Shown here one piece after another: positions 1,700-49,029 of a DNA stretch of 64,000 nucleotides. Every line of letters starts with the position of its first letter. Within the stretch, counting starts at the first letter, position 1. Where the stretch lies: contig CBDBIB010000003.1 of NCBI GenBank assembly GCA_965205945.1, forward strand, positions 96,001 through 160,000, read 5' to 3'. Source of the stretch: Bdellovibrionales bacterium. Lineage in GTDB: Bacteria; Bdellovibrionota; Bdellovibrionia; Bdellovibrionales; UBA1609. The position numbers and the translations under genes are program-made. The notes below the pieces were generated by a model. It was not told the DNA's origin. It ran no database searches and saw nothing but the letters and a program-made list of their open reading frames with translations.

Positions 1700-2138
1700 T
1701 TAGCTTTATCGTCACTAATAAAGACGCTTAAAAAACAATAAACTCTCTGCCGCTAGCTCTGATTTATTCTTACTTAAATCCCAGGCCTTCTTAAACCTTC
1801 TTCTGGCATCCATCATACACCCAAACCTTAGAGCTAAATCTTTTTCAATCTGGTTACAATAAGAATGCTCATCTGCTTATAAAACTCCAGTATAACCCCC
1901 TAAAAGCCTCTCACCCCAGGACTTCTCTTTTTTTCTCCTAAAACTTCAACCCTAGTTTCATCAATTCCTATATAATCTTCATCAAACATTCGCTCTTCTA
2001 AAACATTATAAAGAGGCATCAGTTTTCTAGAAATATTTATCAGCCAACTTGCTATCACTCCTCTTTTTAATGTGATCCCATAAAGTTTATACAGATCTTC
2101 TAGCCTATAAAGTGGAAGATGCTGAAAGTATTTACTAA
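1700..2138 (-). pseudogene. IS66-family transposase (TnpC) fragment
   Basis: KY.QHLPLYR, IDETRVEVL and GCMMDARRRF (compare CWAHARRKF). Contains stops and an internal deletion, and is cut by the IS982 end. Confidence 0.85.
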
Positions 2139-3159
2139 ACCCGAGTTCGGACTTTTCCAAGAATCTAAGTATAAATAAAAGATCACCTTAAGCCTTTTGT
2201 AAGATGTAGTTTTTTTTTAATCTGATCTGAAAAAAGGAGCTGGGAATGATTAAAGAGAACCAAATTATAGAGATTTTTACTCTTGTTGACGATTTTATTT
2301 TAGGACTAAATTACGAGCAGCGCAAACTCACACCCGGCAAAAGGAAGAGGGAGTTTTCCCCCTGCGTTATCTGAATCTAAAGTTATCACAATTTGTTTGT
2401 TATTCCAGTTTTCTGGTTTTAGAAATTTTAAAGCTTTTTATATAGGCTATGTTTTAAAATTTCTAAAACCTTATTTCCCAAAACTCTTGTCCTATAATAG
2501 GTTTGTAGAACTTAAAAAATATTGAGCACCTTAACTCTTTATTTTCCTAAACTCACTCATGGAATCAAATTACAGGAATATCTATTCTAGACTCAAGCCC
2601 CGTGAGTGTTTGTAACAACAAAAGAATCAGTCGCCATAAAACCTTTAAGGGGCTTTGAAAACGTAAAAAATTAACAATGGGCTGGTTCTCTTTAGTTTTA
2701 AAGTTCATATCATTATTTCTCATAAAGAAGAGCTCCTAAACTTCACTATGACCCCAGGAAACGTCCATGATACAAAACCTTTAGAGAATCTTACAGATGG
2801 TTTGTTTGGAAAGCTTTTTGGAGATAAGGGGTATATCTTAAAAGAACCTCTTTAAAAAAAACTTATGGCTAAAGGTGTTTAAGTTAATTACTAATTTAAA
2901 ATCAAATATGAAAAATAAGTTTGTACCACTTTTTGATAAACTTTTACTGAGAAAAAGATATATTGTTAAGACTGTTTTAGGAATTTTAAAGGAAGAGTTT
3001 CACATTGAACACTCTTAACATCAAAGTCTTAAAAAACTTTATAGTGAATCTTTTATCAGCATTAACTGCATATTGTCTGCGTCCTTTTAAACCAGCAATA
3101 CGTGCTTAAACCCATGAAAATAGAGTGTTAAACCAGATTTAAAAAGTCCCAACTCGGGT
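2139..3159 (+). mobile_element. Degenerate IS982-family insertion sequence
   Basis: Terminal inverted repeats ACCCGAGTTCGGACTTTT and AAAAGTCCCAACTCGGGT (1 mismatch); ~1.02 kb. Frameshifted transposase with IF.LVDDF, LSES.VITI, GDKGY and LLLRKR. Confidence 0.88.
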
Positions 3160-3183
3160 TATATAAGAAACAGCTTCTAAAAG

Positions 3184-3325
3184 AACTTAACTCTTGTTAA
3201 TGGCGACTTAACTACACATGTTACTAATATGAGCCATATGCATTGAGTAATGCAGCTTTAACAACCCCCTAACATCTCTGGTTGGAATACTTTTAAAGTT
3301 ATTAATATGGATGGTGTACTTTTAC
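3184..3325 (+). pseudogene. Degenerate relic of a BspA/DUF285 surface-repeat gene, paralogous to 9962-10100
   Basis: AACTTAACTCTTGTTAATGG..ACATGTTACTAATATGAGC..ATGCAGCTTTA aligns with the start of the 75-bp array in the downstream gene, with stops and indels. Confidence 0.85.
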
Positions 3326-3329
3326 AAAA

Positions 3330-3357
3330 CATGCCGATAAGGAGGATTATGTTACTA
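3330..3357 (+). other. dif/Xer-like recombination site (left copy)
   Basis: cATGCCGATAA-ggagga-TTATGTTACTA has 11-6-11 geometry, a XerC-like arm ending ATAA and a XerD-like arm starting TTATGTTA. Confidence 0.65.
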
Positions 3358-3870
3358 CGTCTGCTTTTAACCACATTATATTTAAGTTTGAAAAGCTGAT
3401 TTTAATTATAAAAGTGCTTAGACTGTAAATTTCTTTATAAAATTATTATGTTTCAATAATAATTACGTTTATTATTAACAAGATAAGGACTGCTTTAGAA
3501 TAATTACTCTATAAAAATATTTAATATTTAAAATATTCTTTTTTAATATCGCTTTAGATATTAAATAATCTTTATATTATACATATGCTGTTATTTTAAC
3601 CAGCATCTAAGTTTAAAAGCTTATTAAGATAACAGCATATGTATTATATAAAGATATTTAAATCTAATATTTAAAAAGCGAATATTAAATATTAAGTTTT
3701 TTTTAAAGTATTTATTTGTATAGCAGTCCTTATTATTTAAATAAGAAAATCTTGTTAATTGAAACGTAACTAATTTTGCAACATTTTTATGTTATAAAGA
3801 AATTTACACTTAAGCACCATAGTTAAAATCAGCAGGTCAAACTCAAAAATAATGTGGTTTTAAGCAGAAA

Positions 3871-3898
3871 TAGTAACATAATCCTCCTTATCGGCATC
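3871..3898 (-). other. dif/Xer-like recombination site (right copy, inverted)
   Basis: Reverse complement gATGCCGATAA-ggagga-TTATGTTACTA, 27/28 identical to the left copy. Confidence 0.65.
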
Positions 3899-3973
3899 TC
3901 ATACAAAAGCACAGATTTTAAATGAAAATAAAAATGTAGAATTAGAGCTAAAAAACTATTTAATTCCCTCTAA

Positions 3974-6900
3974 TTGTTAAGCTTTTCATCCGAAATATAC
4001 AATATGTATAGAGTATATGACTTATTAAAAAATTTCATAGAAATAAGTGTGAAAGCTCTAACTTTCTTCACAATTTTACTATTAACTCCCCATTCTCTAG
4101 CCACCCCAAGTTCTTTTGTTTTTCAAGGCCAAATTGTAAAACCCAATGGAGACGCTTTAGAAGAAAATAATGTCAGCTTTCTTGTTCAAGTTTTATCCTC
4201 CATGGATCATTGTCTTCTTTACGAAGAAAGTTTTAATCTTAATATGATAGGATCAAAGGGAGTTTTTAACTTAAACGTTGGGTCTGGAATAAACACAGGA
4301 AATGGAGGCTTAACAAATTTATCTAAAGCTTTAGACAATTCTTTTTTAAACAATAAAAGTCTTAGTTGTGCCTTTGGGTCTTCATACACTCCAACCTTAA
4401 ACGATACAAGAAGGCTTAGAGTAACTTTTGATCATGGCAGCGGCCCTCTTACTTTAACAAATGATCATATAATTCACAGTGTGCCCTATGCTCAGTATGC
4501 CGGCAAACTTGGTGGAAAAGCTGTTAATGATTTTATTCAAGTAAGTCGTGGTGTTACTCAAAGCAATTTAGAGACCGTGTTTGATAATGATGCCAATCAA
4601 AGAGAGCTTATGGCTTTAATTAATGGCAGCTCTAATCAATACTCCCCATTAAGCATCAGTGGAGCTAGCTCTTTACCGAGTTTTTCAAGCTCTCATCCAC
4701 CACCTAATTCTCAGGCAGGAGATATTTGGTATAACTCTACAAATAATCAAATCATGTACTACAATGGATCAGCAGCCACTGTTGTTGGTAAAGGTAGTGG
4801 AACTGTAACCAGTATTACAGCAGGAAGTGGCTTAAGTGGTGGAACCATTACAAACAGTGGTACAATTTTAATTGCACCAGGGGGTGTTTTAAACAGTCAT
4901 CTTGCAAGTGGTATTCATGCAAATAAAATCACAAGTGGAATTCTACCAAGCTCAGTGGTTCCCACAGGAACTGACAATACAAAACTTCCTCTTACAGGAG
5001 GGGTTTTATTAGGTGACCTTAATCTTAATAATAATCAGATTCTAAACACAAGTCATATTATGCAAAACCCAGGAAGTACCATGACCTTAGGTTCTTATAC
5101 GAATTTAGAAGAAGTTAGTCTTTTAGGATCTATGAACATGAGCAATGCTGGGGCTACTTGGTACAATAGTGACTCTGGAGCGCTTAAGTATTGGAATGGT
5201 GTTAGCTTAGAAGTTTTAAGCACCTTAAGTAGTGCATCAAGTGTTTTAGTCAATGCTCCTTTAACCTCTTCAGGTGGTAGCAACCCAACAATAAGCATCA
5301 ACCTTGGTAGGGGTTTATACAACAACAGTGGAAACATAGATTTAGATTTAGATTCTTCTGGGGGTTTAGAGTTTAATATAAATAAATTAAAAGTAAAAGT
5401 AGGAAGTGGTTTAAAAATTACGCCAAGGGGTTTAGAAGCAGATATAGGAAGTGGTTTAGGACAGCTCATGCAAGTGGACACTCTTCCTGTGTGTACTAGT
5501 GGGGAAAAGATTCAACGAAACCCTGGTGCTATAATAAGCTATTCTTGCGTGGCTGATATTGATACAGACACAGACACAAGTCTTTTAGGAAGCCAGGCTC
5601 AAGGGGATCTTACAGGAACCTACCCAAACCCTAGTCTTACACCAACGGGTGTAACCCAAGGGGCGTACCCAAAAGTTAGAGTTGATGTTAAAGGAAGAGT
5701 GGTTGAGGGTTTAAGTTTATTAAAATCTGATATACCAGATTTAAATGGAGAAAAGATCACTTCAGGAACCATTAGCACAGCTAGATTAGATGTTGGCACA
5801 GGGAGCAATCAGCTTATTAAGCTTGATAGCTCTTTAAGACTGCCTGCTGTTGATGGAAGTCGGCTTATAAACTTACCAAGTAGTGCTGATAATATGGGAG
5901 ATAGCGTAGCTCGATTAAATATAAATCTTAACCAAAATTATTTAAGTGGAGACGGTGATAATGAGGGAATTATTATTGATGCTAGTGGAAGGGTTGGAGT
6001 TGGTAAGGCTAGTCCTGAGGCTTTATTAGACGTTGCTGGAACAGCAAGAATAACACAAATTTGTGATGAAAGAGGAGCAAATTGTAAGGATGTGTCTGAA
6101 GGTTGGAGTTTAGCAAGTCTGGCGGCAAACACGGTGACCTACACTCCATTTGGAAACATTCAGGCTACAGATGTAGAAGGTGCACTTAATGAACTTGAAT
6201 CTAGAAAAGCTCCAATAACTAGAACTATTAGAACGGCTTTAAACAGTGGATTAAGTGGAGGTGGAGATTTATCGACTAATAGAAGTTTAAGTGTAGACAT
6301 TAACAAAACTACAGAAAAAACTACGGCTGATTCTTTAGACAGTGTTTTAATATATGATGTTTCTCAAAGTAGTCTTAAAAAAATAACACATTCAAACTTT
6401 TTAAACGGTTATTTAAAAGCTTCTTTAGGAAAAAGTCGAGGCAACGCAATGGATGCTGGTGGGGTGCCTAGTTGTGAAAGCAATGAAAAACTTCAAATGA
6501 GTAATGGCCCTATTTATTCCTGGTCATGTGAAGTTGATCAAAACACAAGTCTTTTAGGAAGCCAGGCTCAAGGGGATCTTACAGGAACCTACCCAAACCC
6601 TAGTCTTATACCAACGGGTGTAACCCCAGGGACGTACTCAAAAGTTAGAGTTGATGTTAAAGGAAGAGTGGTTGAGAGTTTAAGTTTATCAGAAAATGAT
6701 ATACCAGATTTAAATGGAGAAAAAATCACTTCAGGAACCATTAGCACAGCTAGATTAGATGTTGGCACAGGGAGCAATCAGCTTATTAAGCTTGATAGCT
6801 CTTTAAGACTGCCTGCTGTTGATGGAAGTCGGCTTATAAACTTACCAAGCAGTGCTGATAATATGGGAGATGGTATAGCTCGATTAAATATAAGTCTTAA

Positions 6901-9900
6901 CCAAAATTATTTAAGTGGAGACGGTGATAATGAGGGAATTATTATTGATGCTAGTGGAAGGGTTGGGGTTGGTAAGGCTAGTCCTGAGGCTTTATTAGAC
7001 GTTGCTGGAACAGCAAGAATAACACAAATTTGTGATGAAAGAGGAGCAAATTGTAAGGATGTGTCTGAAGGTTGGAGTTTAGCAAGTCTGGCGGCAAACA
7101 CAGTGACCTACACTCCATTTGGAAACATTCAGGCTACAGATGTAGAAGGTGCACTTAATGAACTTGAATCTAGAAAAGCTCCAATAACTAGAACTATTAC
7201 AACGGCTTTAAACAGTGGATTAAGTGGAGGTGGAGATTTATCAACTAATAGAAGTTTAAGTGTAGACATTAACAAAACTACAGAAAAAACTACGGCTGAT
7301 TCTTTAGACAGTGTTTTAATGTATGATGTTTCTCAAAGTAGTCTTAAAAAAATAACACATTCAAACTTTTTAAACGGTTATTTAAAAGCTTCTTTAGGAA
7401 AAAGTCGAGGCAACGCAATGGATGCTGGTGGGGTGCCTAGTTGTGAAAGCAATGAAAAACTTCAAATGAGTAACGGCCCTATTTATTCCTGGTCATGTGA
7501 AGTTGATCAAAACACAAGTCTTTTAGGAAGCCAGGCTCAAGGGGATCTTACAGGAACCTACCCGAACCCTAGTCTTATACCAACGGGTGTAACCCCAGGG
7601 ACGTACCCAAAAGTTAGAGTTGATGTTAAAGGAAGAGTGGTTGAGGGTTTAAGTTTATTAAAATCTGATATACCAGATTTAAATGGAGAAAAGATCACTT
7701 CAGGAACCATTAGCACAGCTAGATTAGATGTTGGCACAGGGAGTAATCAGCTTATTAAGCTTGATAGCTCTTTAAGACTGCCTGCTGTTGATGGAAGTCG
7801 GCTTATAAACTTACCAAGCAGTGCTGATAATATGGGAGATGGTATAGCTCGATTAAATATAAATCTTAACCAAAATTATTTAAGTGGAGACGGTGATAAT
7901 GAGGGAATTATTATTGATGCTAATGGAAGGGTTGGAGTTGGTAAGGCTAGTCCTGAGGCTTTATTAGACGTTGCTGGAACAGCAAGAATAACACAAATTT
8001 GTGATGAAAGAGGAGCAAATTGTAAGGATGTGTCTGAAGGTTGGAGTTTAGCAAGTCTGGCGGCAAACACGGTGACCTACACTCCATTTGGAAACATTCA
8101 GGCTACAGATGTAGAAGGTGCACTTAATGAACTTGAATCTAGAAAAGCTCCAATAACTAGAACTATTAGAACGGCTTTAAACAGTGGATTAAGTGGAGGC
8201 GGAGATTTATCAACTAATAGAAGTTTAAGTGTAGACATTAACAAAACTACAGAAAAAACTACGGCTGATTCTTTAGACAGTGTTTTAATGTATGATGTTT
8301 CTCAAAGTGGTCTTAAAAAAATAACACATTCAAACTTTTTAAACGGTTATTTAAAAGCTTCTTTAGGCACAAGTCGAGGCAACGCAATGGATGCTGGTGG
8401 GGTGCCTAATTGTGAAAGCAATGAAAAACTTCAAATGAGTGAAGGTCCTATTTATTTATGGTCATGTGTGACAGACACAAGTCTTTTAGGAAGCCAGGCT
8501 CAAGGGGATCTTACAGGAACCTACCCGAACCCTAGTCTTATACCAACGGGTGTAACCCAAGGGACGTACCCAAAAGTTAGAGTTGATGTTAAAGGAAGAG
8601 TGGTTGAGGGTTTAAGTTTATTAAAATCTGATATACCAGATTTAAATGGAGAAAAGATCACTTCAGGAACCATTAGCACAGCTAGATTAGATGTTGGCAC
8701 AGGGAGCAATCAGCTTATTAAGCTTGATAGCTCTTTAAGACTGCCTGCTGTTGATGGAAGTCGGCTTATAAACTTACCAAGCAGTGCTGATAATATGGGA
8801 GATGGCAGGGCTCGATTAAATATAAATCTTAACCAAAATTATTTAAGTGGAGACGGCGATGATGAAGGAATCACTATTAACAATAATGGTGATGTTTCTG
8901 TCTCTGGAAGCATTTCTACTCCAGGATCTATTAGTACATCTACTGTTACATTTTTAAAAAAAGTTGGAACAGTTACAACCCCTTGTGACAGTTTAACTGA
9001 GGGTACTTTAAGGTATAATTCTTTAGGAAAAAAACTGGAGTTTTGCGATGGGGTAGTGTGGAAAACTTTTTTAAGTAACAATGATCCAACAATTTCTATT
9101 ACAAACTCTTTAAGTGGATCTTACATTAATTCTATTAATGAGGGGGGTTTTAGGGTTTTAGGAACATGTTCTGAAGATGGTGAGCTTATCACATTTTCAC
9201 ATGGTACAAGCTTTATTACTTGTTCTAATAAAAGCTTTAGTGGTGATATTGATTTTTCAAGCCTAAGTGATGGTCCACTTTCACTAACTGCTAGTATCAC
9301 AAACATTGCTGGAAATTCTAAAACTTCAGGTGTTTTAAATCTAATAAAAGATACTAAACCCCCTATTGTCAGTATTGGAAGCCATATAATAAGCAGTTCA
9401 AATTCTATAGACTTTCCCATAACTGTAAGCCAAGACTTTAGTAGTATAAACCTAGAAAAGAGCAATGTCAGCCTTACTGGAGCTACTACAGGTTGCACAG
9501 TTTTAGTAACAAATGGAACAACTATTAATCCAAGTATTAGGATTTCAGACTGCAGTGATGAAACCGGAAATATTCAAATTACAATCGCCTCTGGTGTTGC
9601 ACAAGATGCAGCCGGAAACCTGTCTGATGTAGTTAGTTTAAGCACTGAAATACAAAATTTAGGAACCCCTTTTACAGCTAAATTTAGTATTTATGGTAGT
9701 GATTTAAATTTAAATCTTAGGTTAAATTCTTCTTATACATATAACTTTATGGTTCATTGGGGGGATGGAACCTCGGGAGTTGTTACTTCATCAAGTGATT
9801 TAGATAAAAATCATACTTATTCATCTTCAGGGACTTATATAGTTAAAATCACTGGGCGCTGCCCATATCTTAACTTTCGTGATAGCGAGCAAATAATTGA

Positions 9901-11215
9901 GGTTACAGAATTAGGAGACACAGGGTGGGAAAGTTTTAGTCATATGTTTTATAAAGCAGATAACTTAACTCTTGTTAATGGTGGCTCAACTAGACATGTT
10001 ACTAATATGAGCTTGATGTTTTATGATGCAGCTTTAGCTAACCCTGACACCTCTAACTGGGACACTTCTAAGGTTACTAGTATGAGCTGGATGTTTTTTA
10101 GTGCAGATTTAGCTAACCCTGACACCTCTGACTGGGACACTTCTAAGGTTACTAATATGAACGGGATGTTTTATGGTGCAGATTTAGCTAACCCTGACAC
10201 CTCTGACTGGGACACTTCTAAGGTTACTAGTATGAGCTCTATGTTTTATAATGCAGATTTAGCTAACCCTGACACCTCTGACTGGGACACTTCTAAGGTT
10301 ACTAGTATGAGCTCTATGTTTAATAATGCAGCTTTAGCTAACCCTGACACCTCTGACTGGGACACTTCTAAGGTTACTGATATGAGGTCTATGTTTAATA
10401 ATGCAGATTTAGCTAACCCTGACACCTCTGACTGGGACACTTCTAAGGTTACTGATATGAGCTCTATGTTTTTAAGTGCAGCTTTAGCTAACCCTGACAC
10501 CTCTAACTGGGACACTTCTAAGGTTACTGATATGAACTGGATGTTTTCTGATGCAGATTTAGCTAACCCTGACACCTCTAACTGGGACACTTCTAAGGTT
10601 ACTGATATGAGCTCTATGTTTTTAAGTGCAGCTTTAGCTAACCCTGACACCTCTGACTGGGACACTTCTAAGGTTACTAATATGAACGGGATGTTTTCTT
10701 ATGCAGCTTTAGCTAACCCTGACACCTCTGACTGGGACACTTCTAAGGTTACTAGTATGAGCTCTATGTTTTATAATGCAGATTTAGCTAACCCTGACAC
10801 CTCTGACTGGGACACTTCTAAGGTTATTTATATGAACTCTATGTTTTATAATGCAGATTTAGCTAACCCTGACACCTCTAACTGGGACACTTCTAAGGTT
10901 ATTTATATGAACTCTATGTTTTATAATGCAGATTTAGCTAACCCTGACACCTCTAACTGGGACACTTCTAAGGTTACTAATATGAGCTTGATGTTTTATG
11001 ATGCAGATTTAGCTAACCCTGACACCTCTGACTGGGACACTTCTAAGGTTACTGATATGGGGAGTATGTTTAATAATGCAGCTTCTTTTGATCAAGACAT
11101 CAGTTCATGGAATGTTTCTAACGTTCTCGATTGCGGCAGTTTTTCAAGCCGAACTTTAACTTCTTGGACTCGTGCTGAAAAACCTAATTTTACACGTTGT
11201 AGCCCTGGTTATTAA
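3974..11215 (+). CDS. Giant secreted fibre/adhesin: Bdellovibrio-type N-terminal domain, tandem fibre modules, Ig/PKD-like region and C-terminal BspA/DUF285 repeats
   Basis: 2413-aa ORF. Signal-like VKALTFFTILLLTPHSLA (true start may be GTG ~4049), FQGQIVKPNG..CLLYEE, GDLTGTYPNP and GRVGVGKASPEALLDVAG fibre motifs, VHWGDG..HTY, 25-aa repeats. Confidence 0.85.
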   Translation: MLSFSSEIYNMYRVYDLLKNFIEISVKALTFFTILLLTPHSLATPSSFVFQGQIVKPNGDALEENNVSFLVQVLSSMDHCLLYEESFNLNMIGSKGVFNLNVGSGINTGNGGLTNLSKALDNSFLNNKSLSCAFGSSYTPTLNDTRRLRVTFDHGSGPLTLTNDHIIHSVPYAQYAGKLGGKAVNDFIQVSRGVTQSNLETVFDNDANQRELMALINGSSNQYSPLSISGASSLPSFSSSHPPPNSQAGDIWYNSTNNQIMYYNGSAATVVGKGSGTVTSITAGSGLSGGTITNSGTILIAPGGVLNSHLASGIHANKITSGILPSSVVPTGTDNTKLPLTGGVLLGDLNLNNNQILNTSHIMQNPGSTMTLGSYTNLEEVSLLGSMNMSNAGATWYNSDSGALKYWNGVSLEVLSTLSSASSVLVNAPLTSSGGSNPTISINLGRGLYNNSGNIDLDLDSSGGLEFNINKLKVKVGSGLKITPRGLEADIGSGLGQLMQVDTLPVCTSGEKIQRNPGAIISYSCVADIDTDTDTSLLGSQAQGDLTGTYPNPSLTPTGVTQGAYPKVRVDVKGRVVEGLSLLKSDIPDLNGEKITSGTISTARLDVGTGSNQLIKLDSSLRLPAVDGSRLINLPSSADNMGDSVARLNINLNQNYLSGDGDNEGIIIDASGRVGVGKASPEALLDVAGTARITQICDERGANCKDVSEGWSLASLAANTVTYTPFGNIQATDVEGALNELESRKAPITRTIRTALNSGLSGGGDLSTNRSLSVDINKTTEKTTADSLDSVLIYDVSQSSLKKITHSNFLNGYLKASLGKSRGNAMDAGGVPSCESNEKLQMSNGPIYSWSCEVDQNTSLLGSQAQGDLTGTYPNPSLIPTGVTPGTYSKVRVDVKGRVVESLSLSENDIPDLNGEKITSGTISTARLDVGTGSNQLIKLDSSLRLPAVDGSRLINLPSSADNMGDGIARLNISLNQNYLSGDGDNEGIIIDASGRVGVGKASPEALLDVAGTARITQICDERGANCKDVSEGWSLASLAANTVTYTPFGNIQATDVEGALNELESRKAPITRTITTALNSGLSGGGDLSTNRSLSVDINKTTEKTTADSLDSVLMYDVSQSSLKKITHSNFLNGYLKASLGKSRGNAMDAGGVPSCESNEKLQMSNGPIYSWSCEVDQNTSLLGSQAQGDLTGTYPNPSLIPTGVTPGTYPKVRVDVKGRVVEGLSLLKSDIPDLNGEKITSGTISTARLDVGTGSNQLIKLDSSLRLPAVDGSRLINLPSSADNMGDGIARLNINLNQNYLSGDGDNEGIIIDANGRVGVGKASPEALLDVAGTARITQICDERGANCKDVSEGWSLASLAANTVTYTPFGNIQATDVEGALNELESRKAPITRTIRTALNSGLSGGGDLSTNRSLSVDINKTTEKTTADSLDSVLMYDVSQSGLKKITHSNFLNGYLKASLGTSRGNAMDAGGVPNCESNEKLQMSEGPIYLWSCVTDTSLLGSQAQGDLTGTYPNPSLIPTGVTQGTYPKVRVDVKGRVVEGLSLLKSDIPDLNGEKITSGTISTARLDVGTGSNQLIKLDSSLRLPAVDGSRLINLPSSADNMGDGRARLNINLNQNYLSGDGDDEGITINNNGDVSVSGSISTPGSISTSTVTFLKKVGTVTTPCDSLTEGTLRYNSLGKKLEFCDGVVWKTFLSNNDPTISITNSLSGSYINSINEGGFRVLGTCSEDGELITFSHGTSFITCSNKSFSGDIDFSSLSDGPLSLTASITNIAGNSKTSGVLNLIKDTKPPIVSIGSHIISSSNSIDFPITVSQDFSSINLEKSNVSLTGATTGCTVLVTNGTTINPSIRISDCSDETGNIQITIASGVAQDAAGNLSDVVSLSTEIQNLGTPFTAKFSIYGSDLNLNLRLNSSYTYNFMVHWGDGTSGVVTSSSDLDKNHTYSSSGTYIVKITGRCPYLNFRDSEQIIEVTELGDTGWESFSHMFYKADNLTLVNGGSTRHVTNMSLMFYDAALANPDTSNWDTSKVTSMSWMFFSADLANPDTSDWDTSKVTNMNGMFYGADLANPDTSDWDTSKVTSMSSMFYNADLANPDTSDWDTSKVTSMSSMFNNAALANPDTSDWDTSKVTDMRSMFNNADLANPDTSDWDTSKVTDMSSMFLSAALANPDTSNWDTSKVTDMNWMFSDADLANPDTSNWDTSKVTDMSSMFLSAALANPDTSDWDTSKVTNMNGMFSYAALANPDTSDWDTSKVTSMSSMFYNADLANPDTSDWDTSKVIYMNSMFYNADLANPDTSNWDTSKVIYMNSMFYNADLANPDTSNWDTSKVTNMSLMFYDADLANPDTSDWDTSKVTDMGSMFNNAASFDQDISSWNVSNVLDCGSFSSRTLTSWTRAEKPNFTRCSPGY
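5574..8872 (+). repeat. 969-bp (323-aa) in-frame tandem repeat, ~3.4 copies
   Basis: Units start at 5574, 6543, 7512 and 8475 (third unit is 963 bp); near-identical DNA. Confidence 0.97.
9998..11122 (+). repeat. 75-bp (25-aa) in-frame tandem repeat, 14 full units plus 1 divergent, BspA/DUF285 type
   Basis: Consensus VxxMxxMFxxAxLANPDTSxWDTSK; units run from 9998 in steps of 75. Confidence 0.97.
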
Positions 11216-45736: not shown

Positions 45737-46354
45737 ATGGAAAATCTTAAGGGTGAGGCCTTTGTTCTTAAAACACTACCTTATTCTGAATCTGATTTAA
45801 TCTTATATGCGTTGTCTAAAGAACAGGGGGTGCTTCATTTTTTTGTAAAAGGAGCTAAGAACAGTAAAAAACGATTTTCAGGGGGTGTCTTACAACCCCC
45901 ACATTTAATTGATTTTCAAACTTTAAGGTTAGGTAGAAAACAATATGATAATGGAAGTTTGATTACTCTTAAAGAAGCAAGTCTTTTAAATGATTTTATT
46001 AAAATTCGTTTAAGTTATGTTTTTATGGAAACCTTATTTTCAATGATTAAGGTTGTTTTACCTTCAAGAACTGGGCACAAAGAGCTATTTAATCATTTTG
46101 GAGGAGCGTTAAAGGTTTTGCCAACAGTAAAGGATCAGAAAAGATTTTTTACTCATTTTGTTATTAGGTATTTATACATTGAAGGGGTTTTGCCTTTACA
46201 TGTTAAATTTTTAGATTTTATAAAAACTCCACTTAGTTGTCATAAGAAACTTTTAAATGTATCAGAGATTCAGAGTAATAGAGAAGTTAAATTTGCTAAA
46301 TATTTTTTAAAAACGTACTCTAATAGTAAGGAAAGTATTAAGTGGCCAAAGTAA
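45737..46354 (+). CDS. recO: DNA repair protein RecO (divergent)
   Basis: FVLKTLPYSESDLIL..SKEQG...KGAKNSKKRF. Confidence 0.85.
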   Translation: MENLKGEAFVLKTLPYSESDLILYALSKEQGVLHFFVKGAKNSKKRFSGGVLQPPHLIDFQTLRLGRKQYDNGSLITLKEASLLNDFIKIRLSYVFMETLFSMIKVVLPSRTGHKELFNHFGGALKVLPTVKDQKRFFTHFVIRYLYIEGVLPLHVKFLDFIKTPLSCHKKLLNVSEIQSNREVKFAKYFLKTYSNSKESIKWPK

Positions 46355-46854
46355 ATCTTAATTCTAAAAATAGGGCTTTATTTTTAGATCGTGACGATAC
46401 GATAATTACAAATATTCCTTATATGAGTAAAGTGGAGGATATAAATTATCTTCCAAATATTTTTGAAAAGTTAAAAGAAATTCAGGATTTTGGCTATAAA
46501 ATTTTTATTGTTACAAATCAATCAGGCTTATCTAGAAAGCTTATCACTTATAAAGAATTAGAAAAAATTCATTGGAAAATAATAGATGATTTCTCTTTAA
46601 AAGGGCTAAGGGTTTATAAGTATTATATAAGCCCATATAGTCACAAACATCCAAGACGTAAGCCTGGCCATGAGCTACTACTAGAAGCTCAGCGGGACTT
46701 TAATCTTGATTTAAAAAATTCTATTATGATTGGTGATGGTGATCGGGATATTAATGCTGGTTACAATGCTGGTTTAACTACATGTTTAAAAATAAAAGAC
46801 TCAAGTTTTTGGATGAATTTAGATCTTAAAGTATTTAAAAAATTATTGGTTTAA
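46342..46854 (+). CDS. gmhB: HAD-IIIA hydrolase, D,D-heptose 1,7-bisphosphate phosphatase-like
   Basis: FLDRDDT, VTNQSG, RKP, MIGD..RD. Confidence 0.8.
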   Translation: MAKVNLNSKNRALFLDRDDTIITNIPYMSKVEDINYLPNIFEKLKEIQDFGYKIFIVTNQSGLSRKLITYKELEKIHWKIIDDFSLKGLRVYKYYISPYSHKHPRRKPGHELLLEAQRDFNLDLKNSIMIGDGDRDINAGYNAGLTTCLKIKDSSFWMNLDLKVFKKLLV

Positions 46855-47760
46855 GGGGTGGTGTTTGTCAAGAGCCTCACTTAGATCTGAAAGTTCAAGG
46901 TGAGTGTATTTTTCAGTTGTGGATATATTTTTATGTCCTAAAAGCTCTTGAAGAATTCTTAGATCGCTTCCAGACCTTAGTAGATGAGTTGCAAAGCTAT
47001 GCCTTAAACCATGAGGACTAATTTTTTTACCAACAGATAAAAGGCTTCGTTTTACCACCCAGTCATAGACTGATCGTGTATTTAAAGGGGTGTTGCCATA
47101 TATAAATTTAAAATTTAAAGGTAGAATTGATTTAATTTGCTTACTTATAGTATTTGGTATGGCGATAAGGGAGGTTTTTCCACCTTTTTGAAGGCTTTTG
47201 ATTTGTGATTTTTTAAAATTGATATCCCCTATTTTAATGTTGGAGGCTTCTGTCACACGTAGGCCTGCAGTATACATTAAAAGACTAACAAGAAGTTCAT
47301 TTTTATACTTATTATTGTTGTTATTAAAGTCTTTAATAAGACTATTAAAGTAAGTCTCTGTTTCTTCATAGCTAAGGTATTTAGGAAGTGAACGATTGCC
47401 TTTACCTATGTGAGGAAGTTTGTAGGTAAAGTCTTTTCTACATTCACCGGATTCAAACATCCATTTAAGAAATCCTCTTAAAGTCGTAAGCCTCCGTTCT
47501 TTTGATGCTTTTGAAAGGGTTTTAATATTTTGTGGGAGATTAGAAATTAAGAGATCAATAGATACTTTTGATGTGTTTAATTTAGTGATTTTAAGGTTTC
47601 CATTTTTACATAGGTGTATTGAAGGGAATTCATGGATTTTAAAAAGTTTATTAAGATCTGCTTTTACTCCTCGAAGGCTATTTGCAGAGTAAAAGGATAG
47701 ATTGCCTTTATATTTTAAATACTTAGATAAATGAAGAGGGGTTATGTCAAAAATTGTCAC
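46843..47760 (-). CDS. Tyrosine recombinase, XerC/XerD family
   Basis: LPKYL, GLRVTE, SPHGLRHSFATHLL, QELLGH, TEKYTH; catalytic residues intact. Confidence 0.92.
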   Translation of the reverse strand: MTIFDITPLHLSKYLKYKGNLSFYSANSLRGVKADLNKLFKIHEFPSIHLCKNGNLKITKLNTSKVSIDLLISNLPQNIKTLSKASKERRLTTLRGFLKWMFESGECRKDFTYKLPHIGKGNRSLPKYLSYEETETYFNSLIKDFNNNNNKYKNELLVSLLMYTAGLRVTEASNIKIGDINFKKSQIKSLQKGGKTSLIAIPNTISKQIKSILPLNFKFIYGNTPLNTRSVYDWVVKRSLLSVGKKISPHGLRHSFATHLLRSGSDLRILQELLGHKNISTTEKYTHLELSDLSEALDKHHPLNQ

Positions 47761-47802
47761 TAAGGTTATTGTAATATTTTTTTTGAAAATTAGAAAATTT
47801 AC

Positions 47803-47831
47803 TTGCTTATTAACTAAGCATACTGTATAAA
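47803..47831 (+). promoter_or_regulatory. Putative sigma70 promoter
   Basis: TTGCTT-N17-TATAAA. Confidence 0.45.
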
Positions 47832-47874
47832 AGTCTTAAGACTATTTTTAATAGGAAGAAAAAGTCGGATAAAT

Positions 47875-47923
47875 AAAGGGGGGATTTGTGAGCATAGTGC
47901 TCGCTGATCCCCCCTTTTTTTTT
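47875..47923 (+). terminator. Intrinsic terminator-like hairpin upstream of the activator gene
   Basis: GGGGGGAT..GAGCA-tag-TGCTC..ATCCCCCC followed by T9. Confidence 0.8.
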
Positions 47924-47964
47924 GCAAGTGATTAGATTTAGATAAAATACTAAAGGAGCCTATT

Positions 47965-49029
47965 ATGCCATCAAAAAAAAATACCACAGAAACAAAAAAA
48001 CTTACTGAAAAGAGTAAACATTTTCTTAGAATCCCTCTGGGTCAATCACAGCAGGTATTTTCAAGCAAAGAAATTGTGTATCAGTCTGACGCTATGATTA
48101 AGTTAATGGGTATGGTTAATCAAGTTGCTCCTTCTAACGCAGCAATCTTAATTTTGGGTGAAAGTGGAACAGGTAAAGAGCTAATTGCTCAAGAAATTCA
48201 TGAAAAATCAAACAGAGCTCATAAACCGTTAGTTACTATTAACTGTGGAGCTTTAAGAGAAGCTCTTTTAGAGTCAGAGTTATTTGGGCATGAAAAAGGT
48301 GCTTTTACAGGTGCTTATGCTCAAAAGATTGGTTTAGTTGAAGTCGCTGATGGTGGAACTTTATTTCTAGATGAAATTGGTGAGCTTTCACCTGGTATTC
48401 AAGCTAAGCTTTTAAGATTTTTACAAGAAGGCGAGATTTATAGAGTTGGTGGTAAGGAAGCTATTAAAGTAGATATTAGATTAATTTCTGCAACAAATAA
48501 AGATCTTAAAAAAGAAGTTGAAGAAGGGGTTTTTAGGGAAGATTTGTATTATAGAATCAATACGATTGCTGTAGATGTTCCGTCGTTAAGAAAGAGAAAA
48601 GAAGATATTGGGGCCTTAGTTGATTATTTTTTAACTACTGGAATGCATAGATATTTAAACAGAGGTCTTAAGATTTCACCTGAAGCTTTAGATAAGTTAT
48701 TAAAATATGATTGGCCGGGTAATATTAGAGAACTTCAAAATATTTGTGAAAGGCTGCAAATATTATCTAAAGACGAAACTATTCAGGTCTTAGATCTTCC
48801 TGATTTTGTAAGGGTTCCAGGAGAAAAAGTTTTTAATAATGATTATAATTCATCTATAACTCTTCATGAGCTGGAAAAAAGTTATATTTTAAAAGCTTTA
48901 AATCATTTTGGTGGCAATAAAACTCAAGCAGCAAATGCTTTAGGTGTAACGATTAAAACTCTTTATAATAAGCTTCATGAGTATGGTGAGTTTGATCAAT
49001 TTGCAATTCATTCAAGAACTACTAGCTAA
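47965..49029 (+). CDS. Sigma-54-dependent activator with no N-terminal sensor/receiver domain
   Basis: GESGTGKE, GAFTGA, LDEIGE, WPGNIREL, HTH; only ~35 aa precede the AAA+ domain. Confidence 0.92.
   Translation: MPSKKNTTETKKLTEKSKHFLRIPLGQSQQVFSSKEIVYQSDAMIKLMGMVNQVAPSNAAILILGESGTGKELIAQEIHEKSNRAHKPLVTINCGALREALLESELFGHEKGAFTGAYAQKIGLVEVADGGTLFLDEIGELSPGIQAKLLRFLQEGEIYRVGGKEAIKVDIRLISATNKDLKKEVEEGVFREDLYYRINTIAVDVPSLRKRKEDIGALVDYFLTTGMHRYLNRGLKISPEALDKLLKYDWPGNIRELQNICERLQILSKDETIQVLDLPDFVRVPGEKVFNNDYNSSITLHELEKSYILKALNHFGGNKTQAANALGVTIKTLYNKLHEYGEFDQFAIHSRTTS

Follow-up and report, generated by a model that had tools for sequence, protein, structure and literature searches.

Candidate Xer/dif-type invertible switches upstream of nine giant fibre genes in a Bdellovibrionales bacterium

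The hairpin locus and its nine copies

We analysed a 64,000-nt stretch of DNA (the window) from a Bdellovibrionales bacterium, which corresponds to positions 96001-160000 of contig C3 in the source genome (G000; 1.87 Mb in 5 contigs). Directly upstream of a giant fibre gene, the window carries a hairpin-forming element (3315-3913) that is closed by two inverted 27-bp sites resembling dif and that probably belongs to a family of invertible switches. The locus is composed of the following features.

3184-3314, + strand: flank A, the repeated outer flank distal to the gene, part of a duplicated cassette.
3315-3330, + strand: left inverted repeat, outer extension, which comprises GTRCTTTT and a variable 7-mer and is found with both flank types in the 9-copy alignment.
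3331-3357, + strand: left dif-like core site, with the XerD-type arm pointing inward; XerC-type arm ATGCCGATAA at 3331-3340, central hexamer GGAGGA at 3341-3346 and XerD-type arm TTATGTTACTA at 3347-3357.
3358-3611, no strand assigned: L half of the interior, a degenerate inverted copy of the R half.
3612-3761, no strand assigned: R half, inner part, which differs between copy lineages and contains the side hairpin (3733-3744).
3762-3870, + strand: conserved R arm, which contains the conserved block ACAACATTTTTATGTTA and faces the gene in the window copy.
3871-3897, - strand: right dif-like core site, the exact reverse complement of 3331-3357.
3898-3913, - strand: outer extension of the right inverted repeat, delimited by the inverted-repeat search and the 9-copy alignment.
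3914-4048, + strand: flank B, a leader that is constant before the fibre gene, with 98-99% identity across the 9 gene-side flanks.
4004-11215, + strand: giant secreted fibre/adhesin gene with C-terminal DUF285 repeats (Pfam DUF285, E 5.5e-110).

The element consists of nested imperfect inverted repeats around a centre near 3611, which pair as follows.

3315-3409 with 3819-3913: 95 nt, 83% complementary.
3424-3470 with 3762-3808: 47 nt, 83% complementary.
3468-3500 with 3716-3748: 33 nt, 79% complementary.
3513-3549 with 3667-3703: 37 nt, 81% complementary.
3560-3610 with 3613-3663: 51 nt, 82% complementary.

Folding of 3300-3930 gave a single long rod for both DNA and RNA. The DNA fold had an energy of -149.6 kcal/mol, while its 20 dinucleotide shuffles had -47.9 +/- 4.5 (z -22.7); the RNA fold had -239.8 kcal/mol and its 20 dinucleotide shuffles -95.0 +/- 7.2 (z -20.1). 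Within the rod, a perfect 27-bp block reading ATGCCGATAA-GGAGGA-TTATGTTACTA pairs 3331-3357 with 3871-3897, a side hairpin (TTATTTAAATAA) lies at 3733-3744, and no open reading frame (ORF) of at least 40 aa is present inside 3315-3913. An earlier note on this DNA had described a non-coding, rod-like imperfect hairpin with this perfect block and this side hairpin. The hairpin was confirmed by the inverted-repeat search and by DNA and RNA folding (z -20 to -23), and the other three claims agreed with what we found.

The source genome contains eight full copies of the element, the others being 83-86% identical to the window copy, and a ninth, partial copy (C1:289 kb) with one arm and one site only. 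The 27-mer occurs 17 times, 14 times exactly and 3 times with one mismatch (central GGGGGA), and the 17 core sites form 8 inverted pairs and 1 solo site. All nine giant fibre paralogues of the source genome have a copy directly upstream (9/9), and no copy was found away from fibre genes in this genome. The interior between the sites measures 455-513 bp across copies. The 9-copy alignment and BLAST of four landmarks showed a constant cassette order, namely flank A, element, leader B and gene. In the same alignment, the 7-mer of the outer extension took two forms, which were independent of the orientation of the interior.

Flank A is about 75-130 nt long and matches the far flank of five other elements (96-98% over 74-126 nt). 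It also matches internal 3' parts of fibre genes at 74-80%, for example at C3:105967-106084 (window 9967-10084), and is a remnant akin to the DUF285-repeat region at the 3' end of these genes, in the same strand sense as the gene. At two loci, a truncated B fragment takes the place of flank A on the far side. The one-site copy at C1:289 kb retains only the R arm, which adjoins an intact 1694-aa gene. Leader B is partly conserved in a congener (G003).

The fibre paralogues (n=9) are 1256-2646 aa long, one of them cut by a contig end. The first 200 aa of the nine proteins are 100% identical, and the C-terminal parts differ, with DUF285 repeats in 6/9 paralogues, in 2 to 7 stretches; 1 of the 3 DUF285-negative paralogues is the one cut by the contig end. 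The frame of the window fibre gene is open from ATG 4004, and GTG 4049, which aligns with the start codon of the congener, would give a signal-peptide-like start (MKALTFF...). Relative to the congener, the window has 45 extra in-frame bases (4004-4051) between an ATG at the congener's start position and the GTG at MKALT, and the start codon is uncertain. A PDB sequence search with the fibre returned 0 matches. For its N-terminal 700 aa, all matches in ESM Atlas were <0.9, with a weak lead to phage-fibre-like families.

Further observations concern the cassette and its surroundings. A gap of 1.7 kb with few ORFs separates rplI from the cassette. Degenerate, multicopy insertion sequence (IS)-like DNA of ~1 kb (2138-3161) occupies most of this gap and has >10 genome matches at 77-96% and very high contig depth in two public runs (X1 and X3). 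In three copies (C1:68103-68122, C2:176059-176078 and C2:62478-62497), ACGTCTATTT occurs twice in tandem; this 10-bp duplication directly adjoins the XerD-type arm on the L side, whichever way the switch lies. Within the R arm, the best conserved part is the block ACAACATTTTTATGTTA (3779-3797; also in L019/L015). It contains a 5-4-5 palindrome (AACAT TTTT ATGTT) and the 8-mer TTATGTTA of the XerD-type arm, and it could be an extra binding site for a recombinase or regulator, or a product of chance. In the congener, one cassette (flank, switch and fibre gene) sits between a 172-aa gene and an XerC-like gene (L058, G003:C5:523000-542000), and in the source genome the counterparts of these two genes are adjacent, with slightly overlapping ORFs (window 45737-49029). 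Since the cassette is present between these genes in G003 and absent there in the source genome, the cassette moves or is duplicated in one piece.

Core sites related to dif and two orientations of the interior

The source genome has its own dif, ATGCTGATAA-GGTATA-TTATGTTACAA, at C1:58.6 kb (C1:58571-58598), near the maximum of the cumulative GC skew of contig C1 at 61 kb, and the dif 27-mer of the congener G003 is identical to it. Compared with this dif, the switch site has mismatches at 1/10 positions of the XerC arm, 3/6 of the centre and 1/11 of the XerD arm. Its arms of ~11 bp show inner dyad symmetry (ATAA ... TTAT) and flank a 6-bp centre, which corresponds to the layout described for XerC/XerD core sites, with two arms and a 6-bp centre (PMC2731167; the articles cited here were available in part, and what is attributed to them holds for those parts). 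Among 81 genomes of the family, the pattern GATAA-N6-TTATGTTAC was found in 41, with exactly one match in 32 of the 41, and a reversed control pattern gave 3 matches in total across the 81 genomes. The common single-copy form of the site in the family, GATAAGTTATATTATGTTAC, is close to the published dif of B. bacteriovorus HD100, TCTTCTGATAA-GTTATA-TTATGTAACGG (PMC2731167). This likeness is in keeping with a Bdellovibrio-like organism, for which a MurE-like query of the genome contig collection yielded no more than a distant match at 35%. Judged by their letters, the 27-mers are genuine Xer/dif-type sites and close paralogues of the genome's own dif. The earlier note had recognised the 11-6-11 arrangement of a Xer-type site, which is borne out by a single mismatch per arm against the own dif. 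It had also held that the block is not the terminus dif, and the own dif indeed lies elsewhere, near the skew maximum of C1.

Between the two species, the arms of the switch sites are kept and the hexamer is changed (GGAGGA in the source genome vs TATGGA in G003), with one hexamer common to the two partners of each pair. An identical spacer was reported for those plasmid pXerC/D pairs that were recombinationally active and gave reversible inversions (PMC9947245), and the concerted change of the hexamer in both partners fits a need for identical central regions, as in those pairs. The variant centre GGGGGA was found at C1:522063, C3:589940 and C3:590423; one element has it in both sites, and the element at C1:521 kb has it in one site only. 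Such a distribution would be expected if the variant spreads by strand exchange. The own dif lies only ~1.5 kb beyond the 3' end of the fibre paralogue at C1:60059-67999, whose switch is 9.5 kb from dif, and this proximity may be a hint to the origin of the switch sites.

Two motifs within the sites were considered and set aside. Reading inward, AAGGAGGA-N3-ATG is followed by a 16-codon hydrophobic ORF at 3337-3399 (+) and at 3891-3829 (-), giving MLLRLLLTTLYLSLKS and MLLFLLKTTLFLSLTC, and the congener keeps the first 12 codons of the tiny ORF on the R side and then diverges. A role of AAGGAGGA as the ribosome-binding site of such 16-codon ORFs was judged probably coincidental, the congener site (TATGGA) being without the motif. 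The XerC arm contains GCCGATAA, which we take to be the -10 consensus of sigma-28. As a sigma-28 promoter it would face inward and be without a -35 partner, and it was judged coincidental.

At six loci of the source genome, flanks A and B have the same polarity, and between them the interior lies R-proximal at 3 loci and L-proximal at 3.

R-proximal with A/B flanks: C3:99 kb (window), C2:176 kb and C2:61 kb.
L-proximal with A/B flanks: C1:68 kb, C1:521 kb and C2:116 kb.

Over all 9 loci, 4 are R-proximal and 5 L-proximal; the R-proximal set includes the one-site copy, and both truncated-B loci are L-proximal to the real gene. C1:68 lies in the opposite orientation to C2:176 and C2:61, yet all three have the same L half (100% identity), which makes the inversion a recent one.

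A second comparison was made in the congener. Between the G003 loci at C5:412-413 kb and C5:531 kb, the left flank is 95.7% identical over 188 nt and the right flank with the gene 98.0% identical over 3921 nt; the 596-nt middle between these flanks matches only in reverse orientation (96.8%). The junctions lie at the two 27-mers, GTGCTGATAA-TATGGA-TTATGTTACTA. The perfect inverted repeat is confined to these 27-mers, beyond which there are only a few flanking matches. A repeat of 27 bp is too short for efficient homologous recombination. Because a 27-bp repeat of dif architecture sits at the exact inversion junctions, site-specific recombination is favoured over homologous recombination. In both genomes, the two orientations between shared flanks were found by comparing paralogous loci, not within one locus.

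A probable switch and its alternatives

In our view, the elements are probably a family of Xer/dif-type invertible switches that phase-vary the fibre genes. The earlier note had listed a Xer-invertible switch in front of the adhesin among its suggestions, and this fits the presence of both orientations between the same flanks and of the element at all nine fibre genes. In the proposed mechanism, a Xer-type tyrosine recombinase, most likely the housekeeping XerC/XerD, would exchange strands across the central hexamers and flip the interior. The private hexamer (GGAGGA vs GGTATA in dif) would allow the switch sites to recombine together and not with dif. Flipping would put leader B beside the conserved R arm in the ON state and apart from it in the OFF state, for each paralogue independently, and cells would display different subsets of nine fibres with differing C-terminal tips. 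The window copy, in which the R arm faces the gene, is taken to be in the ON state. The R arm is the candidate functional cargo (promoter or leader), because it is the only interior part kept between species and because the locked one-site copy keeps R beside an intact gene. We infer that flipping is still going on, that XerC/XerD carries it out and that the R arm holds a promoter.

Two genes of the source genome are the candidates for the enzyme.

46843-47760, - strand: XerC-like tyrosine recombinase, 305 aa (NCBIfam XerC, 160 bits).
C2:242734-243642, outside the window: XerD-like recombinase, 302 aa (NCBIfam XerD, 263 bits).

Both scores are below the NCBIfam equivalog cut-offs, but no other family matches either protein better. 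Searched with the XerC-like protein, 41/41 family genomes gave a match (E <= 1e-15) and 37 of them two, taken as the XerC-like and XerD-like pair; for this reason the two are regarded as housekeeping genes. The source genome also encodes a 430-aa integrase, two integrase fragments and a 238-aa serine recombinase ORF. In G003, only 2 Phage_integrase-family matches were found, the XerD-like and XerC-like genes, together with a serine recombinase in a 628-aa open frame. XerC/XerD are the likely flippers, because the sites are dif-like and G003 is without another tyrosine recombinase.

Several observations weigh against this interpretation. No flipping was seen at a single locus in one population, and the evidence for inversion is wholly comparative. 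In the public runs (4 from 2 studies, as Logan contigs, with a share of words <=0.39), contigs end at the inner site edges (3357 and 3871) and leave the interior uncovered; no run recorded as RNA was among those listed. Runs X1-X3 leave 3427-3711 uncovered, and the flanks are repeated, so that short contigs are not assignable to a locus. In run X4, one contig joins a sister-type L arm, the site and the B flank; this flank occurs at 9 loci, and the contig is not assignable to one of them. The pair at C1:521 kb is mismatched (GGAGGA and GGGGGA) and may be locked. In G003, the switch is present at only 2/15 fibre paralogues, and the gene family is thus not dependent on it. The two halves of the window copy are 74% alike, so the two states may differ less here than elsewhere. 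Within 3150-4100, 5 sigma-70-like matches were found vs 7.8 +/- 2.6 in shuffles, with none pointing outward in the R arm, and the R arm could instead be an accessory recombination sequence or a leader. A serine recombinase, present in both genomes and of unlike size in the two (238-aa ORF vs 628-aa frame), could also be the enzyme. Finally, FtsK at the septum normally has to activate XerCD before it acts at dif, a requirement that would have to be satisfied at nine dispersed sites.

The hairpin itself might be functional, either as a long structured RNA or as a folded single-stranded or cruciform DNA substrate like the attP of CTXphi, and the earlier note had considered both. Its extreme fold energy (z -20 to -23) would suit such a role, as would the ends of the stem, where two Xer-type sites would pair into one duplex site. 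However, the fold is not conserved among the copies. In ViennaRNA, the window copy had an RNA minimum free energy of -238.0 kcal/mol, with 220/231 rod pairs, whereas the seven sister copies reached -125.7 to -145.1 kcal/mol with 62-84 of 178-195 rod pairs, and the two G003 elements -108.3 and -111.9 kcal/mol with 31-53 of 178-191. When the L half is compared with the reverse complement of the R half, identity is 74% for the window copy and 59-60% for the 7 sisters. Between the window and the other 7 copies, the R halves are 89-91% identical and the L halves 80-85%, with several deletions in the others; the outer ~125 nt of R are 96-98% identical among the copies of the source genome.

A four-way alignment of the window L half, a sister L half (C2:116 kb) and the reverse complements of both R halves was then used to compare the decay of the two arms. 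Among the columns in which the R halves agree, 53 showed a difference from R shared by both L halves, 40 were columns in which only the window L still matches R (mostly sister deletions), and 17 were columns in which only the sister L does. The 53 shared derived columns trace every L half back to a single inverted copy of R. Of the 42 columns that distinguish the R halves of the two copy lineages, none (0/42) is compensated in the L half. In G003, only the outer R arm (3762-3912) is conserved, at 76-78% to both its elements; the rest of the interior is unrelated and not palindromic, with no counterpart of the L half and no match for 3612..3761. On these comparisons the rod is best read as a by-product: in the lineage of the source genome, an inverted copy of the R half took the place of the half opposite the R arm and has decayed since then, with the window copy the least affected. 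This leaves no room for a conserved fold of RNA or of single-stranded DNA as the function, because the fold is weak in the seven sisters and absent in the congener, compensation is lacking and the L arm decays; the R arm, in turn, is constrained. At the gathering score, Rfam gave only a tRNA elsewhere in the window and no family for the hairpin, and the sub-gathering matches (a plant miRNA precursor at 38.9 bits vs a gathering score of 100, and a tmRNA fragment) were taken as chance. Neither the CTXphi-like folded attP nor the long structured RNA of the earlier note is upheld by these results, and a function of the hairpin as such is very improbable.

The elements could also be read as a non-autonomous mobile foldback element, either like a miniature inverted-repeat transposable element (MITE) or moved by Xer, that spread to nine places, with the fibre genes as landing sites. 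They are multicopy and gene-less and have terminal inverted repeats, IS debris adjoins several copies (for example at window 2138-3161), and the two loci with a truncated B flank on the far side are a sign of past inter-locus exchange. Nevertheless, every copy has the same cassette position, at 9/9 paralogues and nowhere else, which also tells against the gene-less mobile foldback element of the earlier note. There are no target-site duplications, the 7-mers outside the sites not being direct repeats, and no empty site was found. The ends match dif and not any IS ends in the source genome, no similar sequence was found in phage or plasmid collections, and insertion does not explain the varied orientation between identical flanks. 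A metagenome scan for the XerD arm joined to the R-arm start gave one match (L059), which is without the rest of the site and looks unrelated; the same pattern gave 0 matches in the genome contig collection, where near relatives are possibly not included. We consider such an origin quite improbable. It is also unlikely, if somewhat less so, that the element is a functionless relic, that is, an inverted duplication shaped by rare homologous recombination or cassette duplication, without present dedicated switching. The interior palindrome is decaying, no flipping within a population was seen and no promoter was found (consensus scans were no better than shuffles), as a relic would lead one to expect. 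The repeats are, however, precise dif paralogues, whose arms are conserved across species while the interior except the R arm has diverged beyond recognition. In G003, the inversion is exact despite a repeat of no more than 27 bp; the hexamer is common to the two sites of a pair and unlike that of dif; and L halves are identical in flipped and unflipped copies. A decayed inverted duplication, which the earlier note had set against its own proposals, is an apt description of the interior hairpin and not of the element as a whole.

Known systems, related arrangements and meaning for predation

Inversion switches for surface proteins are classical. E. coli fimS with FimB/FimE, the Bacteroides capsule promoters and the C. 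difficile RecV switches use dedicated invertases, and their sites are unrelated to dif. Like these switches, the present element is a few-hundred-bp segment between inverted repeats upstream of a surface-structure gene, found in two orientations; unlike them, it has dif-like sites, and consensus scans place no promoter in it. Integrative mobile elements exploiting Xer (IMEX), including CTXphi, integrate at dif via host XerCD. They have directly repeated sites and carry genes, and CTXphi folds two inverted half-sites. In contrast, the present elements have inverted full sites, lie off dif (9 loci over 3 contigs, the nearest ~9.5 kb from dif) and have a fold that is not conserved. By the criteria for IMEX and for MITEs, they belong to neither class.

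Closer parallels come from Xer-family inversion systems. In Ureaplasma parvum, the mba locus and the UU172 element are inverted by a Xer-family recombinase annotated XerC (PMC3599477). The likeness to the present case lies in the phase variation of a surface protein by inversion at short inverted repeats, there with a Xer-family tyrosine recombinase. In U. parvum, however, CodV and not the invertase bound the putative dif, the invertase being a separate paralogue (PMC3599477), whereas here the sites are near-copies of dif, the congener is without a third tyrosine recombinase, nine switches occur, one per gene, and the organism belongs to another phylum. In Mycoplasma agalactiae, the Xer-like recombinase Xer1 drives switching in the variable surface-protein family vpma (PMC2268961). 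In that system, the genes form one cluster with a dedicated xer1 beside it, and inversion changes their position relative to a single promoter; in the present one, the loci are scattered, a small invertible segment belongs to each of them, and no dedicated recombinase gene is linked to any. In Acinetobacter plasmids, pXerC/D (pdif) sites form inverted 28-bp site pairs, and reversible inversions were attributed to host XerC/XerD (PMC9947245). These dif modules lie on plasmids, bracket resistance or other cargo genes and serve plasmid shuffling. The present element shares with them the site order C/D ... D/C. It differs in being chromosomal, contains no ORF of at least 40 aa, stands in a constant context before one gene family, is laid out like a regulatory switch and has no counterpart in the plasmid collection. 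Literature searches on Xer/dif inversion and phase variation found the Mollicutes and Acinetobacter cases and, among the papers listed, no such invertible switch for Bdellovibrio. What sets the present case apart is that the sites are chromosomal dif paralogues, apparently with no recombinase dedicated to them, that nine dispersed genes have a switch each, that the bacterium is of a predatory type and that the interior has become a palindrome.

Related arrangements were observed elsewhere in the family. In another genus (L054, G060:C1:290500-298500), two inverted dif-like sites with the centre GTGTCT lie 1.5 kb apart, at 3198-3214(-) and 4686-4702(+). Their XerD-type arms face outward, and an ATG in each is the start of a type IV pilin-like gene (MLHTGKQKKQEK.GFSLIELLVV); the right-hand pilin-like gene has a PF07963 match, and the interior encodes a PD-(D/E)XK 'transposase' (PF12784). 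This arrangement looks like a toggle between two pilin genes. The genome G088 has 13 matches to the dif pattern, one with a dif-type centre (CTTTTA) and twelve with the private centre GCTTAA or GCTTCA. Eight of these 12 private-centre sites form four inverted pairs (L050-L053, C1), 2.6-10 kb apart and with one hexamer per pair. Two interior ORFs that were scanned are YhgA/Rpn-like (PF04754), and small secreted-protein or pilin-like genes lie just outside. Two inverted dif-type sites with the centre GTTATA were also found 41 bp apart at G034:C52:2842-2902 and 9.7 kb apart at G052:C1:1166851-1176573. Related genera of the family appear to apply the same device to type IV pilin genes.

For the fibre genes, a further proposal can be put forward tentatively, and with more doubt than confidence. 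XerC/XerD may double as the invertase of nine independent switches, with only the private hexamer separating them from dif, and the predator may in this way shuffle nine prey-binding fibres. If this is true, up to 2^8 fibre combinations would be available, plus one locked copy, and the system would be a cellular counterpart of the tail-fibre inversion in phages Mu and P1.

The breadth of prey recognition by Bdellovibrio-type predators is an open question. Chimeric fibre proteins have been tied to prey recognition (PMC10769870), and a term search of that article gave no mention of phase variation, inversion or a recombinase. Should every fibre gene carry a switch of its own, the cells of a clonal predator population would differ in their fibre sets, with consequences for prey range, for prey escape and for predators used as living antibiotics. 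The chromosome would then also offer an example of gene regulation that reuses dif paralogues, and probably the essential XerCD as well, with the central hexamer as an insulator between the chromosome and switch jobs. The GGAGGA, GGGGGA and TATGGA hexamers, the one mismatched pair and the one single-site copy are natural variants for study. The switches would thus offer both a concrete route to fibre variation in a predator and a natural system for examining how dif paralogues stay apart from dif.

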